Source: a phage. Taken from it: DNA of 49,773 nucleotides. The DNA is taken from sequence record PZ715804.1. One strand, 5' to 3'. Positions 5,673 through 43,655 of this stretch are shown here, in pieces (the first letter of the stretch is position 1; each line of letters begins with the position of its first letter). The notes beneath the pieces are model-generated. The model did not search any database and was not told the origin of the DNA. It was given only the letters and a program-made list of their open reading frames with translations. The position numbers and the translations under genes are program-made.

Positions 5673-6608
5673 TTAAAGTAGGTCGCTTGCTGAGAATAAT
5701 TTGGCTTGCATTCCTGAGCGGTATCCTCCCGGATTTGGGATGATTATCTTTAATTGTCGATCGTCAGCCATATATAGTGTTTCTTTGTCTGAAGGCTCGC
5801 ACGCCACCCGCATCTCCCGATCCCCATTGTATCTGTAAGCAACCATTTCGAGATTTTCAGGAGTGAAGCAGGCCCATACTTCTTGCTTTGTGTGAAATGC
5901 AATATGCTGAGCATCAATCCAGTTCAGGCATAAGTAGATCGCCTTTTCTGTTTTACCAGTCACGGCAACCGAGCAACTCGTGTATTTCTTCGCGTAAAAT
6001 GATTCTCTTCCTTCCTCATCAATAATCAAAATATTGCAAAACTCGTCATCAAGCCCGTCCTCGTGTACAAGTTGACACGGGATAGTGTGAAATAACGATT
6101 CCCCGCCATCCTCTCGGCGTTTTACGCCAACGTCGAATGATTCAGTAGGAAGAGACTCAAACACGCTTAGAGGAGTGTTTACGCGCTTCTCTGTGCGCTC
6201 CATGACTTTCATCACCGCTTCATGATCTGCCATCATGACATTGACACCCGATACCGGAGTCCGGCGCGCTTTCTTGTTTGCCTTGACGATGTATTCCTGC
6301 GGAACTTTTCCGAGAAATCTTCCCAGGATATTTATGCATTCGCTATACGGCATACCAGTTAATTTCATCAACCAACCTATCCCGGAGTCGTTACCGCATG
6401 AGTTGCAGATTGCACCGCCGTCTCCTGGGGTATTCAGATTGTCTGTCCAGCGAAAACGGTCTTTACCTCCACAGTTAGGGCAAGGTTGATGCTTCTTGTT
6501 GAATACCTCGTTAGGTAATCCGCATAATGACTGGAATGCATCTCGCCATAACCCCTTCATATACGGCAAGACGTCCTCTTTCTGAAACATCATAAACTCT
6601 TCGTTCAC
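5673..6608 (-). CDS. putative DNA primase (zinc-ribbon primase-like)
   Basis: 311 aa; GTG start with GGAG RBS; CPNCGGKDRFRW...CNSCG zinc-ribbon typical of phage/plasmid primases. Confidence 0.5.
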   Translation of the reverse strand: MNEEFMMFQKEDVLPYMKGLWRDAFQSLCGLPNEVFNKKHQPCPNCGGKDRFRWTDNLNTPGDGGAICNSCGNDSGIGWLMKLTGMPYSECINILGRFLGKVPQEYIVKANKKARRTPVSGVNVMMADHEAVMKVMERTEKRVNTPLSVFESLPTESFDVGVKRREDGGESLFHTIPCQLVHEDGLDDEFCNILIIDEEGRESFYAKKYTSCSVAVTGKTEKAIYLCLNWIDAQHIAFHTKQEVWACFTPENLEMVAYRYNGDREMRVACEPSDKETLYMADDRQLKIIIPNPGGYRSGMQAKLFSASDLL

Positions 6609-9714: not shown

Positions 9715-10428
9715 ATGAAAGACTTTAATGATATCGAAACTATCGACTTTGCAGAAACTGGTTGCTCATTCACTCGCGAAGCAATAGCATCAGGCGGTTA
9801 TTATCAGGCATTGAAAACGCCAACCTGCAAAGAGATTTCAGGGCTTCGATACAAGGGGACAAATACCCCTGACGCTGTTCGTGATTTATGGTCAACCCCG
9901 CGCGAGGTTATCGCATACCTTGAGGGTCGTTACGGAAAATATGATCTAGACGCTGCGGCAAGCGAAGAAAATAAAGTTTGCGAGAAGTTTTATTCCCAGG
10001 AAACAAACTGCTTAAAAAGTTGGTGGGGTAAGAATAAGCACGTTTGGTTAAACCCTCCTTATAGCCGACCTGATATATTCGTCAAGAAGGCTATTGAGCA
10101 AATGGAGCACAACAACCAGATCGATATACTGTTACCAGCCGATAACTCTACGGCGTGGTTTACTGAGGTGCGACAGCACGCGGCTGAAATCATCTGGATT
10201 GAGGCTGACTTGACAGAAGATATTGACGGCAACGAGTATGCTCGATCCGGTCGTCTAGCTTTCATATCAGGTGAAACTGGAAAGGCCGTAGACGGCAATA
10301 ACAAAGGTTCGGTAATTTTTATTATGCGCGAACTTAAAGAAGGTGAGGTGCAACAGACTCACTACATCCCAATCACAAGCATTTGCCCTTCGGTGAAAAA
10401 CAAACGAGCAAAGGTGAGGAAAGTATGA
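9715..10428 (+). CDS. dam: DNA N6-adenine methyltransferase (phage Dam-like)
   Basis: 237 aa; catalytic NPPY motif (WLNPPYSRP); GAGGAA RBS. Confidence 0.7.
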   Translation: MKDFNDIETIDFAETGCSFTREAIASGGYYQALKTPTCKEISGLRYKGTNTPDAVRDLWSTPREVIAYLEGRYGKYDLDAAASEENKVCEKFYSQETNCLKSWWGKNKHVWLNPPYSRPDIFVKKAIEQMEHNNQIDILLPADNSTAWFTEVRQHAAEIIWIEADLTEDIDGNEYARSGRLAFISGETGKAVDGNNKGSVIFIMRELKEGEVQQTHYIPITSICPSVKNKRAKVRKV

Positions 10429-10676
10429 TGAGCGAAAAAATGGTTACTATTAAATTAACTGAGCAAGGTTTATGGCTTCTTTATCGCGCTACGTGCTGCG
10501 AGATTATGGAGCGAAACGGATTGACTAATGATGTTATTGGTTGCGATCTGTGGGAGTTCACTAGTTCTCTTGATATGTCTTTCGATGAGATAAAAAATGA
10601 ATACATAGAGAATTGGCCTTCAATCATACAGAGAGACGTAGAGGAACTTAAAGCTGATATGATCGTTCAGCACTAA
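10425..10676 (+). CDS. hypothetical protein
   Basis: 83 aa from ATG overlapping Dam stop (ATGATG) behind GAGGAAAG RBS; stop TAA lies inside a motif copy. Confidence 0.45.
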   Translation: MMSEKMVTIKLTEQGLWLLYRATCCEIMERNGLTNDVIGCDLWEFTSSLDMSFDEIKNEYIENWPSIIQRDVEELKADMIVQH

Positions 10677-18852: not shown

Positions 18853-18898
18853 ATTATGCCAAATCACACCGATCGAGTTTTAACAAAAAGTGCTATTT
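18853..18898 (-). promoter_or_regulatory. motif-spacer-(-10) cassette (minus strand)
   Basis: Minus-strand reading TAGCACTTTTTGTTAAAAC, 22 nt spacer, CATAAT; motif also encodes the Dcm-like C-terminus. Confidence 0.5.
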
Positions 18899-19584
18899 GC
18901 GATTGCTTTAAAAAATCCCCTGGGCGACAGGGATCGTATCAGCTTAGTTTTGGCAGACTTGCCGCCTAGCTTACTGTGCTGTGCAGAGTACCCGTCAGGT
19001 AGGCTTACAGGTTTTCTCTCGGGCATGACAAAATCGTCAGAGGTCCAAAGGCAAGTTTTCTTCGGGTAAGCATCGCGCGGCGCAATATACATCGGGAACC
19101 AGGGGTGTGAGTCATTCTCAGGAAGATAGCCGCCATACTCCCAGGGATTGAAGGAGTGATTTGGTTTTCTCCAGGCAGATGACAGGACGCTAACCGGATT
19201 CTCAATGATGTAAGTCACGCCCAGGGCGTCGCCAATATTTGCAGCAATCCGGGCGGTGGCAACAGCCTTCTCCTGGAATAACGGATCGCGTTCACGCTTT
19301 CTTGCGAAGTGAGCGGCACCACTAACAGCCAGGTCAGTGCACGGAGGGAAAGCCATAATGAAATCCGGCTTGCCATACACGCCAGCGATAGCATCACGCT
19401 CAAACGCTGCGTCAATGAACACGTTCACATACTCAATGTTCTGATGCTCCACTCTGGCATTGCACTTTGCATAATCCCCGTGATCGGCTCCGTCAAAGTT
19501 GAAGCACATCACCTTGTGACCTTGCTTAGCCAGTTCATGACCTGCAAGGCCGGAACCGTCGAATAGCGACCAGATTAATTTCAT
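18880..19584 (-). CDS. dcm: DNA cytosine-5 methyltransferase-like protein (short, Dcm-like)
   Basis: 234 aa; motif I LFDGSGLAG, motif IV FPPCTDLAVSG, ENV-like IIENPV; C-terminus ...ANSTFC* is encoded by the repeated motif. Confidence 0.6.
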   Translation of the reverse strand: MKLIWSLFDGSGLAGHELAKQGHKVMCFNFDGADHGDYAKCNARVEHQNIEYVNVFIDAAFERDAIAGVYGKPDFIMAFPPCTDLAVSGAAHFARKRERDPLFQEKAVATARIAANIGDALGVTYIIENPVSVLSSAWRKPNHSFNPWEYGGYLPENDSHPWFPMYIAPRDAYPKKTCLWTSDDFVMPERKPVSLPDGYSAQHSKLGGKSAKTKLIRSLSPRGFFKAIANSTFC

Positions 19585-39326: not shown

Positions 39327-39995
39327 ATGCACTTACCAAATGGCGCGCAAATTTTCGTGGAAACCTCTCGCGGAGAAGAGATAGAGGCGACCGCTGTCAC
39401 TAACGAAAAAAATCCTGTTGCTACAGTTGCATCTAAAGGTGACTTAGTAAAAGGTGATTACGTTATTGTAACTCAGTCAACTTGGGCTAAGATGGTTAGT
39501 CGAGTACTAATTGTTACTGACGCTCAGGAAACAAGTATTACTCTTGCTGGAATTGACACTACTGATACTCTTGTTTTCCCGGCTGGCGGTACAATGAGCT
39601 TTGCAAAAGTTACTGGTTGGACTGAGATCCCTTGCGTACAGGAGATTGGTCAGGACGGCGGCGAGCAGCAGTATTACACTTATCAGTGTTTGTCCGACGA
39701 TAAAGAACAGCAGATCCCTACGTTTAAATCTGCAATCTCGCTAACGTACACCTTCGCGCACGAATTTGATAACCCTATCTATCCTATTCTGCGTAAGCTG
39801 GATTCTTCTGGTCAGGTAACTGCGGTTCGGATGTATGTTCCAAAAGCGAACGAGATGCGCATGTGGGCTGGTATCTTGTCTTTTAACGACATTCCGTCTA
39901 CGCAAGTAAACGAAATGGAAACGGTACAACTAGCTGTATCCCTGAAAGGTGACTTTACTTTCATCTCATCCACTCTGGCATCGCCTGGTGCTTAA
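39327..39995 (+). CDS. major tail protein (putative)
   Basis: 222 aa; AAGGAG RBS; position immediately before chaperone pair and tape measure. Confidence 0.55.
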   Translation: MHLPNGAQIFVETSRGEEIEATAVTNEKNPVATVASKGDLVKGDYVIVTQSTWAKMVSRVLIVTDAQETSITLAGIDTTDTLVFPAGGTMSFAKVTGWTEIPCVQEIGQDGGEQQYYTYQCLSDDKEQQIPTFKSAISLTYTFAHEFDNPIYPILRKLDSSGQVTAVRMYVPKANEMRMWAGILSFNDIPSTQVNEMETVQLAVSLKGDFTFISSTLASPGA

Positions 39996-40007
39996 ATACC
40001 ATCCATA

Positions 40008-40034
40008 GGGGGCTTGCGTCCCCTTATTCATTTC
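40008..40034 (+). terminator. terminator after the major tail protein gene
   Basis: GGGGGC-TTGC-GTCCCC (one G-U) then U-rich tract. Confidence 0.5.
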
Positions 40035-40069
40035 TGTAAAATCATCCTATCAACTCTATTCACTTAACT

Positions 40070-40089
40070 TTTAACAAAAAGTGCTATCA
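40070..40089 (-). promoter_or_regulatory. motif copy in inverted orientation abutting the tail chaperone RBS
   Basis: Plus-strand TTTTAACAAAAAGTGCTATC then CCAATCAGGAG RBS. Confidence 0.4.
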
Positions 40090-40108
40090 ACCAATCAGGA
40101 GAAACATC

Positions 40109-40426
40109 ATGGCTAAATTCAATTTCGTGTTGGGCCAGCTTCCAGACTTCAAACTTCCGGTGACGTTCACCATGCCAAACGGCGAGGATGCAACTATTAT
40201 TTTTACAGTGCGCCACCTTTCCAGTAAAGAAGTGCAAGATATGTATGCGAAGCAGGGCGAAATGAATGATAGCGATTTCATCACTAAGATCGCGTCAGGC
40301 TGGAATCTGGAAGAAGAATTTAACGAAGAGAATACGCGTAAACTGGTACAGTATTATCCTTCCGCAGCGTACAACCTGACGGCAACTTACATCAAGGCGC
40401 TCGCCGGACACCGCGCAAAAAACTAA
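40109..40426 (+). CDS. tail assembly chaperone (lambda G-like, zero-frame product)
   Basis: 105 aa; ends at TAA 40424-40426 directly after slippery A_AAA_AAC. Confidence 0.7.
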   Translation: MAKFNFVLGQLPDFKLPVTFTMPNGEDATIIFTVRHLSSKEVQDMYAKQGEMNDSDFITKIASGWNLEEEFNEENTRKLVQYYPSAAYNLTATYIKALAGHRAKN

Positions 40427-40743
40427 AAAGGGCGGTTTATCTGTTATATCAGAAACCGCCGACAGAAGAGCAATTACGATCGGTTGGCCTCAGTCTTTCT
40501 GACTATGAAGACGAGGAACCGGAAACGATAATCGGCGATACTGAAATGGTGAAGGCGTGGAATGTTTTTACGTCAATGCTCACTCAGTGGAGAAGTTCAG
40601 GCGCTGGAGCTTATGGTCTTGACTATAATGTTTTGCCTATGTTGTTCAAAATCTATAAAATAGAAGATGAAGAACTGGCATTGCAGGACGTTAGAATCAT
40701 GGAAGCGAAAGCGCTTGAAATGGTTGCTAAGCAAAACAACTAA
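40109..40743 (+). CDS. tail assembly chaperone frameshift fusion (lambda GT-like), made by -1 shift at 40417-40423
   Basis: -1 frame is open from the slippery site to TAA 40741-40743 with no start codon of its own until 40546; stem-loop 7 nt downstream of the heptamer. Confidence 0.6.
40417..40460 (+). other. programmed -1 ribosomal frameshift site: slippery heptamer A_AAA_AAC (40417-40423) plus downstream stem-loop (40431-40460)
   Basis: Heptamer is in zero-frame phase at the last two codons of the chaperone ORF; stem GGCGGTTT/AAACCGCC starts 7 nt downstream. Confidence 0.6.
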
Positions 40744-40765
40744 GCCGCCGTTTGGCGGTTTTTTC
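40744..40765 (+). terminator. terminator-RBS junction between chaperone and tape measure genes
   Basis: CCGCC-GTTT-GGCGG then TTTTTT. Confidence 0.65.
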
Positions 40766-40781
40766 GTATATAGGGGGTTAT

Positions 40782-43655
40782 ATGGTTGATAAGGTAGCAG
40801 GTCTGTCGCTTGACGTTGATGTGTCAACAGTGCAGCGCGCCGTCAAGTCACTGAAAGAGTTTTCAAAGGCCAACGACCAGGCCGCTGATTCTATGGGTTC
40901 TTTAATCAATGAGTCAGAGGTTGCAAAACAGAAGGCCAAAGAACACGCTGAACAACTAAGGCGCCAGAGAAAAGAGTATGAGGCCGTGGAGAAGGCAATC
41001 GATCCTACAGTATCAAAAATGGAAAGGTTGAAGATTGCATCTCAGCAGCTTGATAAACTCTGGCAGCAGGGAGTCGTTCCAGATGAGACGTTTTTCCGTT
41101 TGGGTGAAATGCTGGATCTGCAAAACGCAAAACTTGCTCGCAGCCGGGCTATGCTTACGGAAGAAGGTCAGGCGGCATTGCAGGAAGCGAAAGCAAAAGA
41201 GCAGGCGGCAGCACGAAGCAAGGCGTTCATGGATGCCCTGAATGGTCAAGTTAACGCGATCGGCAAGACTCATGCTGAATTGATGGAACTGAAAGCGGCT
41301 GAGCTTGGTTTATCGAAAGAAGCAGCACCACTAATCGCAAAACTTAAAGATCAAGGCCGAGCTATGAATGCAGCAGGTATTAGCGCCGGGGAATACAGGC
41401 AAGCAATGCGAATGCTTCCTGCACAGATTACCGACGTCGTTACATCTCTTGCGTCCGGCATGCCAGTTTGGATGGTTGCCATCCAGCAAGGCGGTCAAAT
41501 CAAGGACTCGTTCGGCGGGATTGGTAATACGTTTAAAGTGTTGCTGAGTTATATTAATCCAGTCACAGCAGGTATTGGCGTTCTTGTTGGTTCGTTAGGT
41601 CTTCTGGCGAAAGCTGGTTATGACTCTTACAAGTCAATAACTGATATTCAGAATGCGCTTATTGAGACTGGCGGTTATGCAGGTGTTACGGCTGAAGATC
41701 TTGATTCAGTGTCTAAAAAGATCGCGCAGACAAGTAACTCAACCATTGGGAGTATTCGCGAGATTGTAACGGAGTTGGCAAGTTCTGGTAAGTACACCCG
41801 CGAGCAGATCCAGAACATCACTAAGGCTACCGCAGAGTGGTCAGCGTCAACAGGAAAATCAGCAAGTCAAATTATTTCTGAGTTCGACAAAATCGCAAGC
41901 GATCCGGTAAAAGGTCTGAAGAAGTTAAATGAGCAATATAATTTCCTTGAAAAAGGGCAGCTTACCTATATCGATACATTAAGCCGGACGAAAGGAGAAA
42001 CTGAGGCAGTATCTGAAGCAACGAAATTATTCGCCGACGTAATGGAAAAGCGAATGAAGTCAATAGCGGATAATGCTACCCCTCTGGAAAAAATGTGGAA
42101 CGATATTAAACAATGGGCTTCGGACGCGTGGGGATGGGTGGGTGATCATACACTTGGGGCGCTAAACCTGATTATTGATGTGGTTCAGGGTACAGTGATT
42201 CAGGTAAAAATGATTCTTGCGAAAGGTGACGAATACATCTCAAACTTTATTGCCTCTGCGATTAAGGCTACACAGTCTCTTCCTGGTATGAGTGATTTCG
42301 GCGCTGATGTACTGAAGGAGCAGGAGAATATTGTAAAAAGTTCTCGCGACAACTACGATCAGTTATCTTCAGAGCTTGACGCTATTAACGCTCGTGTAGA
42401 AAAAGGAGAGATGGGATACATTGAAGCAATGAGGCAGCGTCGCACTCTTGAAAAGCAGTACAGCGAGGAAACTAAGGAGGCAATAAGGAAAGAAGCAGAA
42501 GAGATCGAGAAGCGAAACCGAGAACGAAATAAGCAGTCGAAAATTGTACGCTCACCGACAGAGCAATTCGACAAGGAGTTAATTTCACTCAAGGCTCAAC
42601 TTAAGGTATTGCAGGAGCACAAGGAGATCGGGCAAAAACTTTCCGCACAGAGAAAGGCGTTGTTTACAACTGAGGCTACGATCGCTGTTCTTCGCGAAGC
42701 CAGCTCTAAGCGTCAGTTGTCTGCGGAAGAAAAAGCGTTGCTGGCAAGTCAGGAGAGAGTTATTGAGCTTGCAAAACAGAAGGCCGAGATTGGCGATCAG
42801 ATTGTTAAGCAACAACAGTTGAATGATCTTACCGATAAATCTCTGAAGTTTGTCAATGAGATGACGGCGGCGACAGAACAGCTTAACGCGTCACGCGGTC
42901 TTAGCACGCGCGAAATGGAACGACAAGCGGAACTGGCTAAAATAACCACTGATTACATCAACTCTGGAGGTAGTGAGGGAGACGAAAAACTCCAGAACAT
43001 GATTAAGGCGCAAAATGATTACTACGCTGCGGAAGATGCCAAGCGTGCTGACTGGTTAGCTGGTGCTGAAAGTGCTTTTGCTGATTACGGTGATGCAGCA
43101 ATGGATATGTACGGCAATGTTAACGATATCGCGTCAAGTGCACTTAACGGAATGTCAGATATGATGGTTCAATTTCTGACCACAGGAAAAGCGAACTTTG
43201 GGGACTTTGCGAAAAATATCATCGGCATGATTATAAAGATGATTGCTCAGATGGTAATCTTCAATACGATCTCAGGCATGATGGGCGGTAAGACGTGGAG
43301 CTTTGCTGGAGGGGCGTCGTCTGGTGCTTCTGCGGCATCACAGGCAACCCCTACACCTGCCGCTTCTGTTTTTAGATCTGCATCATCCGGCGGGGCCGCT
43401 GTATCACTTGCTGCCGCAGCGGGTAGCGTGGCAACCTCTGGATTCAACGCATCAAACTCGGCGCCAAAGGCGATAAACCATTCAGGAGGTGGGACGGTCG
43501 TTGATGTTAGGGGTATGGAGGTTAAAGTTGACAACGGTTCAGATCCGAGAGGAATTTCTCAGGGCGTAGAAATGATGTTCAAAAAAATGATTCGAGAGTC
43601 TTGTTCACAGGGCGGTGAGGTTTACAATTACATTCAGGAAAAAACAGGAGGCTAA
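40782..43655 (+). CDS. tail tape measure protein
   Basis: About 957 aa; coiled-coil-rich; Gly/Ala/Ser-rich C-terminal region; start behind terminator plus AGGGGG RBS. Confidence 0.85.

Follow-up and report, generated by a model that had tools for sequence, protein, structure and literature searches.

A probable ribosomal −1 frameshift between two tail assembly chaperone reading frames of a T1-like phage

Downstream of the major tail protein gene of the phage in sequence record PZ715804.1, a short open reading frame (ORF) for a tail assembly chaperone is overlapped by a second ORF in the −1 frame that reaches almost to the tape measure gene and has its first ATG only at 40546. This arrangement raises the question of whether the second frame is a small gene of its own or is read only by ribosomes that change frame at the end of the first. 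The window analyzed here is the whole stretch of 49,773 nucleotides, and all coordinates refer to it.

The region from 40050 to 40800 is 99.9% identical to the Escherichia phages JMPW1, IME167, and phi2013 and 97.7% identical to phage T1, and on account of these identities the source phage is assigned by sequence to the T1-like siphophages, Tunavirus (Drexlerviridae). The genes follow one another as major tail protein (39327-39995), chaperone (40109-40426), −1 ORF (to 40743), and tape measure (40782-43655), which is the same as the V-G-T-H order of phage lambda, where the chaperone pair also stands between the major tail protein and tape measure genes. The short ORF and its −1 extension are accordingly called G and T below. 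The features of the locus are listed in Table 1. A consensus scan placed terminator-like hairpins on both sides of the chaperone gene; the Klebsiella phage Sushi record annotates a terminator at the position equivalent to 40005..40027, and the T1 record has a "terminator, rho-independent" at the place equivalent to 40742..40767.

Table 1. Features of the chaperone locus, in window coordinates
Feature	Coordinates	Strand	Basis and remarks
Terminator-like hairpin	40005..40027	+	Consensus scan; predicted; 3' of the major tail protein gene, 5' of the chaperone gene
Shine-Dalgarno AGGAG, chaperone gene	40097..40101	+	Read from sequence; 7 nt before ATG 40109
Short chaperone ORF, G analogue, 105 aa	40109..40426	+	Product of standard decoding
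Slippery heptamer A_AAA_AAC, X_XXY_YYZ phase	40417..40423	+	Sequence; join site of the T1 frameshift product
−1 frame extension, T analogue, 106 codons + stop	40423..40743	+	Translation; read only after the shift
Frame-0 stop TAA directly 3' of the heptamer	40424..40426	+	Sequence; possible "shifty stop" context
RNA hairpin, 7 bp + 2-nt bulge + 4 bp, 6-nt loop	40431..40460	+	Folding; candidate frameshift stimulator, 7 nt 3' of the heptamer
65-aa ATG ORF	40546..40743	+	Separate gene in the closest GenBank records; judged non-independent
Rho-independent terminator-like hairpin + T-run	40742..40767	+	Consensus scan; between the T stop and tape measure ATG 40782

The two reading frames and their products

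The frameshift is not new: for T1 it has already been curated in GenBank record AY216660, where a two-piece coding sequence, 18872..19506, named "tape measure chaperone, frameshift product" (CPTT1_039, AAP50000.2, 211 aa), stands beside the 105-aa chaperone (CPTT1_038, AAP49960.1). Equivalent joins are annotated in phage TLS (tfmA/tfmS) and in Klebsiella phage Sushi, and the frameshift is mentioned in genome papers on T1-like phages, including that on U136B (PMC8104045). The searchable literature contained no experimental report of the fusion protein in T1 or its relatives. The records of JMPW1, IME167, and phi2013 list the 105-aa and 65-aa products as "hypothetical proteins" encoded by separate genes, with no join.

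The short ORF encodes 105 aa with the C-terminus AGHRAKN*, and its last codons are GCA (40415-17), AAA (40418-20), AAC (40421-23), and TAA (40424-26), the stretch 40412-40438 reading CGC GCA AAA AAC TAA AAA GGG CGG TTT. A preliminary description of this DNA had claimed an ORF ending in AKN* on an in-phase A_AAA_AAC, and the codons bear this out; it is the sole in-phase heptamer of the ORF overlap, and the stop follows it directly. The same description had held that the −1 frame is open to 40743 and lacks a start before 40546. The frame has no stop between 40342 and the TAA at 40741-40743, and a scan of 40342-40545 found no ATG, GTG, or TTG in that frame. The only near-cognate codons before 40546 are CTG 40441, ATA 40528, and ATC 40531. 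CTG 40441 was considered as an alternative start and rejected, as it lies 3' of the codons for the conserved LKRAVY and initiates very poorly.

The 105-aa protein is 100% identical to T1 AAP49960.1 and matches Pfam PF08748, Phage_TAC_4, along the full length (E = 2e-37), so that by fold or family the upstream product counts among the tail assembly chaperones. A protein search with G alone gave 23 matches, which were used for the structure model; the resulting AlphaFold2 model, built with 24 homologues, has a pLDDT of 77.7. A single-sequence model was poor (pLDDT 46) and was dropped, and the 211-aa fusion was of little use as a search query, with 2 partial matches only. Three tail assembly chaperones have solved structures (PMC9603447), and the G model compares with them at modest scores. 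A Foldseek search of the PDB with this model gave no significant match, and a phmmer search of PDB sequences with the fusion gave only chance-level matches to the proteasome. When predicted viral structures were searched with the G model, the best matches were annotated tape measure chaperones.

The −1 segment matches Pfam PF08809, DUF1799 (E = 5e-12), from about nucleotide 40492, 18 codons upstream of ATG 40546. Joined to the short ORF, it gives a fusion of 211 aa whether the coding sequence is written as join(40109..40423,40423..40743), with the junction K-N-L, or as join(40109..40420,40420..40743), with the junction K-K-L. A single PHROG profile, phrog_17368 (213 positions), spans both halves, the first matching positions 1-107 and the second positions 107-212; the databases therefore already contain such joined proteins. 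Comparison with T1-family chaperone pairs had been proposed as a check, and it shows both halves to be orthologous and the join site to be identical to that of T1. When the conceptual T1 fusion at the heptamer was looked up by exact sequence, the version with the AKK-LKRAV junction was found to be AAP50000.2. The fusion of the window differs from AAP50000.2 at 2 residues, both in the T part, and was itself absent from the protein collection under the same exact-sequence lookup. The heptamer, the stop, and the hairpin are alike in T1 and in the window, with no mechanistic difference.

For comparison among relatives, 92 loci gave 89 distinct G..T regions, and the counts below are on 88 of these, Shigella phage 2019SD1 being left out. 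That phage has A5 in place of A6, which is most likely a homopolymer sequencing error. Across the relatives, the −1 segment is conserved as a protein from its first codon, with the consensus LKRAVYL.YQ..PT...L.....G..R.DYE, and pairwise differences in its first 33 codons fall at codon positions 1, 2, and 3 in proportions of 24%, 20%, and 56%.

These data bear on the reading in which no recoding takes place and the second frame is an independent small gene, starting at ATG 40546 (65 aa) or at a non-canonical codon 5' of it. Gene-calling programs and a number of GenBank records do list a separate coding sequence, of 65 aa here and 89 aa in SH2 and LHE71, and TLS lists a 65-aa tfmB beside the joined tfmS. 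However, the strong protein conservation (LKRAVYL.YQ..PT...) begins at the shift site, 41 codons before ATG 40546, the frame offers no ATG, GTG, or TTG upstream, and a start at ATG 40546 would truncate the DUF1799 domain. No Shine-Dalgarno sequence precedes this ATG (upstream sequence CGATAATCGGCGATACTGAA); by contrast, G and the major tail protein both start behind AGGAG and the tape measure gene behind GGGGG. The Met of 40546 is also unconserved. The first in-frame ATG falls anywhere from codon 7 to codon 91 among the relatives, and Webervirus, Dhillonvirus, phiES15, and a Ralstonia phage lack the Met, their first in-frame ATG being codon 50, 74, 71, and 91, respectively, of about 105. Independent initiation is therefore not a general route to the DUF1799 domain, and for this phage we consider it the least credible of the explanations, with hardly any probability left to it. 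The earlier claim that 40546..40743 is not an independent gene agrees with the missing Shine-Dalgarno sequence, the upstream start of DUF1799, and the unconserved Met. Separately, a ribosome-binding site common to both chaperone coding sequences is annotated in T1 at the position equivalent to 40097..40101.

Conservation of the slippery site and of the adjacent stop

Heptamers of the X_XXY_YYZ type are frequent in the window, where 54 long ORFs (13,334 codons) hold 42 of them in phase. Only the one at 40417-40423 abuts the stop of its own ORF and opens a −1 extension of around 100 codons (106). Among the relatives, X_XXA_AAC with an adjacent stop is present in 68 of 88: A_AAA_AAC is followed directly by TAA or TGA in 67, and G_GGA_AAC by TGA in one, a Ralstonia phage. 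Tetramers standing in the same frame relation are found in 20 relatives, namely GCA AAA GTT TAA (A_AAA) in 15 that are Webervirus-like and GCA AAG GTC TAA (A_AAG) in 5. The heptamer is kept down to a G protein identity of 31-36%. The residue before the Lys is variable (V, A, E, T, or R) and the third base of its codon is always equal to X; since the residue varies while this base stays, the constancy points to selection on the nucleotide and not on the protein.

The stop codon is conserved in a similar manner. It abuts the heptamer in 68 of the 68 relatives that bear one and is no more than one codon away in the remaining 20. The Leu codon that overlaps the stop in the −1 frame is CTA, TTA, or CTG in 88/88 relatives, and with this restriction the frame-0 stop is always kept. 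In the window, CTA makes up 11% of the Leu codons.

One way to read the prominence of the stop is that only one peptidyl-tRNA slips, at a moment when the A site is vacant or occupied by the slowly decoded stop codon, so that the adjacent stop, and not the hairpin described below, would be the main stimulator. The slipping tRNA could be tRNA-Asn, paired with AAC while UAA occupies the A site (a "shifty stop"), or tRNA-Lys on AAA before AAC is decoded. The invariable proximity of the stop speaks for such a mechanism, as does the restriction of the overlapping Leu to CTA/TTA/CTG, which keeps the stop though CTA is rare. A single-tRNA slip would be obligatory for the relatives that have only an A_AAA or A_AAG tetramer, and the hairpin is dispensable in some lineages. 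Slow-to-decode A-site codons and stops beside shift sites are, moreover, known stimulators (PMC5009743). The position of the stop could nevertheless be kept in order to fix the C-terminus of the short chaperone, and the full X_XXY_YYZ motif is retained, including the third base of the variable codon and the switch to G_GGA_AAC in the Ralstonia phage. Since that base is kept and the switch occurs, two tRNAs appear to re-pair. We regard slippage of a single tRNA as a possibility that deserves attention but is on the unlikely side.

A further reading places the slip in transcription, with RNA polymerase adding one A on the A6 run 40417-40422 and some transcripts encoding the fusion in one frame. 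Transcriptional slippage on A/T runs is known in bacteria and IS elements (PMC5009743). An extra A would give the same frame and the K-K-L junction. Appreciable slippage by the Escherichia coli RNA polymerase needs about 8 to 9 or more A's, and the A6 run is shorter. A site of this kind should show a long homopolymer whose length, rather than phase, is conserved; the run here is only A6, and conservation tracks the X_XXY_YYZ phase and not the run length. Relatives shift frame with A4 (GCA AAA GTT), A3 (GCA AAG GTC), or GGGAAAC, and the A_AAA and A_AAG tetramers are able to support ribosomal slippage but are too short for transcriptional slippage. The hierarchy of such tetramers in ribosomal slippage is given in PMC4066793. 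A structured element at the spacing of a ribosomal stimulator, kept by codon choice, also speaks against a transcriptional origin, which we judge to be highly improbable.

The hairpin downstream of the shift site

An 8-bp stem at 40431-40460, 7 nt 3' of the heptamer, had been described earlier and is indeed present, with the arms GGCGGTTT (40431-38) and AAACCGCC (40453-60). The minimum-energy fold is slightly different and larger, consisting of 7 bp (40431-37/40454-60), a 2-nt bulge, 4 bp (40440-43/40450-53), and a 6-nt loop. The spacer of 7 nt is within the range of 5 to 9 nt that is typical of 3' stimulators (PMC5009743). The hairpin has a folding energy of −16.1 kcal/mol (z = −5.3), and 0 of 200 dinucleotide shuffles folded equally well. 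As an intrinsic terminator it was rejected, there being no T-run after it. An upstream Shine-Dalgarno-like stimulator was sought in the window as well, and only a weak GGA 8 nt upstream was found, none being clear.

The encoded peptide does not account for the hairpin. When the 15-residue peptide was recoded 5000 times with the window's own codon usage, only 1 of the 5000 versions folded as well as the native hairpin, which is therefore not a by-product of the peptide. The native structure rests on rare or minority codons: AGG (9% of Arg), GCG (25% of Ala), and CCG (38% of Pro).

The hairpin is lineage specific. It is kept in Tunavirinae and Tempevirinae (−13 to −20 kcal/mol), while Dhillonvirus has at the same place a stem of different sequence (GGCGGCG/CGCCGCC) and Webervirus a weaker one (CGGGCUG/CAGCCUG). 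Braunvirinae-like sequences with the same heptamer have no hairpin there (−0.4 to −8 kcal/mol, with z around 0 or positive). In a covariation count on 50 distinct relatives, the stem was paired in 70.8% of cells, against 37-48% in slid controls. Compensatory covariation among these 50 sequences is weak, with changes on both sides in 15 cells only, and the small number of true compensatory changes means that covariation alone is no proof of the hairpin. The stem may plausibly stimulate the shift, but not in every lineage, since Braunvirinae with the same heptamer lack it. Our reading is that the hairpin appears to be selected in this lineage and would act as a modulator rather than as a universal part of the signal.

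Proposed mechanism and comparison with other frameshift systems

Taken with the phase and conservation of the heptamer and the coding nature of the −1 segment, the locus very probably produces its long tail assembly chaperone by ribosomal −1 frameshifting on A_AAA_AAC. Most ribosomes on the short ORF would terminate at TAA 40424 and release the 105-aa chaperone, and a small fraction would slip back one nucleotide on the heptamer and read the −1 frame to 40743, giving the 211-aa fusion with DUF1799 as its C-terminal half. On the model of lambda gpG/gpGT, coating of the tape measure protein would fall to the N-terminal part common to both forms and recruitment of the major tail protein to the rare C-terminal extension, and the shift would hold the long form at a fixed, low ratio to the short one. 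The heptamer is intrinsically weak; the stop beside it and the hairpin 7 nt downstream probably make it more efficient by delaying the ribosome.

The weakness of this heptamer is documented. IS1 shifts frame on A_AAA_AAC, which makes the heptamer a proven −1 site in E. coli, though one of low efficiency (PMC4066793). In reporters with a background of about 0.05%, it gave 0.163% frameshifting without a stimulator, 0.189% with the IS911 stimulators, and 0.739% with the IS3 pseudoknot; G_GGA_AAC gave 0.164%, 0.222%, and 0.888%, and the lambda heptamer G_GGA_AAG gave 0.277%, 3.80%, and 43.0%, respectively (PMC4066793 Table S3). The lambda gpG/gpGT −1 frameshift (Levin et al. 1993; Xu et al. 2004, 2013, 2014), summarised in PMC5009743, has a reported long:short ratio of about 1:30 (PMC5009743). 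The long form may be much rarer here than in lambda because A_AAA_AAC is weak in the E. coli reporters, and its share probably lies well under the lambda ratio unless the stop and the hairpin raise the yield. Alternatively, context effects beyond this analysis may matter for efficiency.

The proposal that this is an analogue of the lambda G/GT frameshift before the tape measure gene holds up in the position of the pair, the startless −1 ORF, the heptamer, and the Phage_TAC_4 match. As in lambda, there are two overlapping ORFs, the second startless and in the −1 frame, with an X_XXY_YYZ heptamer near the end of the first, and a short product with a rarer fusion is expected. The protein families nevertheless differ, being Phage_TAC_4 and DUF1799 here, and no homology to the lambda proteins was detected when the G-family alignment was compared with lambda G by hhalign (probability 0.1%) and the T-family alignment with lambda T by profile comparison (probability 1%). 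The products are smaller, with 105 and 211 aa in contrast to 140 and about 279 aa. In place of G_GGA_AAG, in E. coli reporters a much stronger site, the heptamer here is A_AAA_AAC; it abuts the stop, while that of lambda lies 5 codons before it; and a stable hairpin follows the site here, unlike in lambda. Judged by position, architecture, and logic, the locus is a functional analogue of lambda G/GT with a TAC-like fold.

The identical A_AAA_AAC is used in E. coli by IS1 insA-insB', where it likewise has a low intrinsic efficiency and gives a rare fusion of overlapping ORFs (PMC4066793). IS1 differs in having no established stimulator, whereas the phage site has a conserved adjacent stop and a lineage-specific hairpin, and the proteins, a transposase and tail assembly chaperones, are unrelated. 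Signals of the dnaX/IS911 type share with the present one a heptamer followed by a stem-loop at a spacer of 5 to 9 nt. In that type the stem-loop occurs with or without an upstream Shine-Dalgarno-like element, of which there is no clear instance here, and the phage heptamer ends in C and not in G. In dnaX, moreover, the frameshift shortens the protein, while here it would extend it.

Peculiar to this family are a heptamer that is very weak in E. coli, its constant place beside a stop, and a hairpin found in some subfamilies only. It is conceivable, though we hold it to be doubtful, that the Drexlerviridae signal forms a distinct and tunable class of −1 sites, in which a weak X_XXA_AAC is joined to a frame-0 stop and to a lineage-specific hairpin built of rare codons. 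If so, the long:short ratio would be set by termination kinetics (release-factor activity) and not by heptamer strength alone, and it would differ strongly between subfamilies with and without the hairpin. Ribosomal frameshifting at this locus would in any event be one more confirmation of the near-universal G/GT strategy.

For annotation, the preferred reading means that 40546..40743 should be given as the 3' part of a 211-aa product and not as a stand-alone gene, both here and in the records of JMPW1, IME167, and phi2013. In addition, many RefSeq records wrongly name both chaperone ORFs "tail length tape measure protein."

Shift sites and hairpins among the relatives

The loci of relatives compared with the G to T region of the window did not all carry the slippery heptamer. 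It was missing from the Webervirus loci L024 and L095-L110, Klebsiella phage Sushi among them, and from L072-L076, where the chaperone gene ended instead in GCA AAA GTT TAA or GCA AAG GTC TAA, which hold the tetramers A_AAA and A_AAG, respectively. The −1 relation was unchanged in these relatives and the T sequence was homologous; the shift site of the family has thus changed between heptamer and tetramer forms.

In the Braunvirinae-like loci (L025, L026, L061, L072-L076, and L088-L099), A_AAA_AAC and the stop were kept, and no stable hairpin was found downstream of the shift site. Arg was encoded by CGC or CGA and Ala by GCA, in place of AGG or CGG and GCG. The subfamilies may differ in frameshift efficiency.

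Irregular loci and another heptamer

In Shigella phage 2019SD1 (L059, NC_049820.1), the A-run of the shift site (about 1105-1125; GTAAAAACTAAAAAGGG) has five A's in place of six. Because of this, the chaperone ORF reads on in the wrong frame to 122 aa, with the T frame at +1. The shorter run is probably a homopolymer sequencing error of the deposited genome, a natural variant being possible. The chaperone homologue of L018 (IMGVR_UViG_2974611450_000001, 1501-1814) is interrupted, with an ORF of 86 codons and altered frame relations, and is 82% identical across residues 4 to 105. Either an indel or an error of assembly may account for this.

Within the window, a minus-strand ORF of 306 aa (5673-6593) contains an in-phase C_CCA_AAT 19 codons ahead of its stop, and the −1 frame is open for 86 codons, continuing beyond that stop. 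This heptamer is probably there by chance.

Flanking terminator-like hairpins and public annotation

The chaperone gene of the window is flanked on both sides by terminator-like hairpins, which suggests that transcription is stepped down along the tail genes, in addition to translational control of the product ratio.

Terminator-like hairpins around the chaperone gene of the window
Coordinates	Location	Annotation in relatives
40005-40027	After major tail gene	Equivalent annotated in Sushi
40742-40767	T stop to tape measure start	Rho-independent in T1 annotation; also annotated in Sushi

In many RefSeq phage records, the two chaperone ORFs each carry the name "tail length tape measure protein," and several public records call the downstream ORF, of 89 or 65 aa, as a gene of its own. 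The lambda RefSeq record (L111, NC_001416) gives T as a separate CDS (10115..10549) and not as a joined G-T product.
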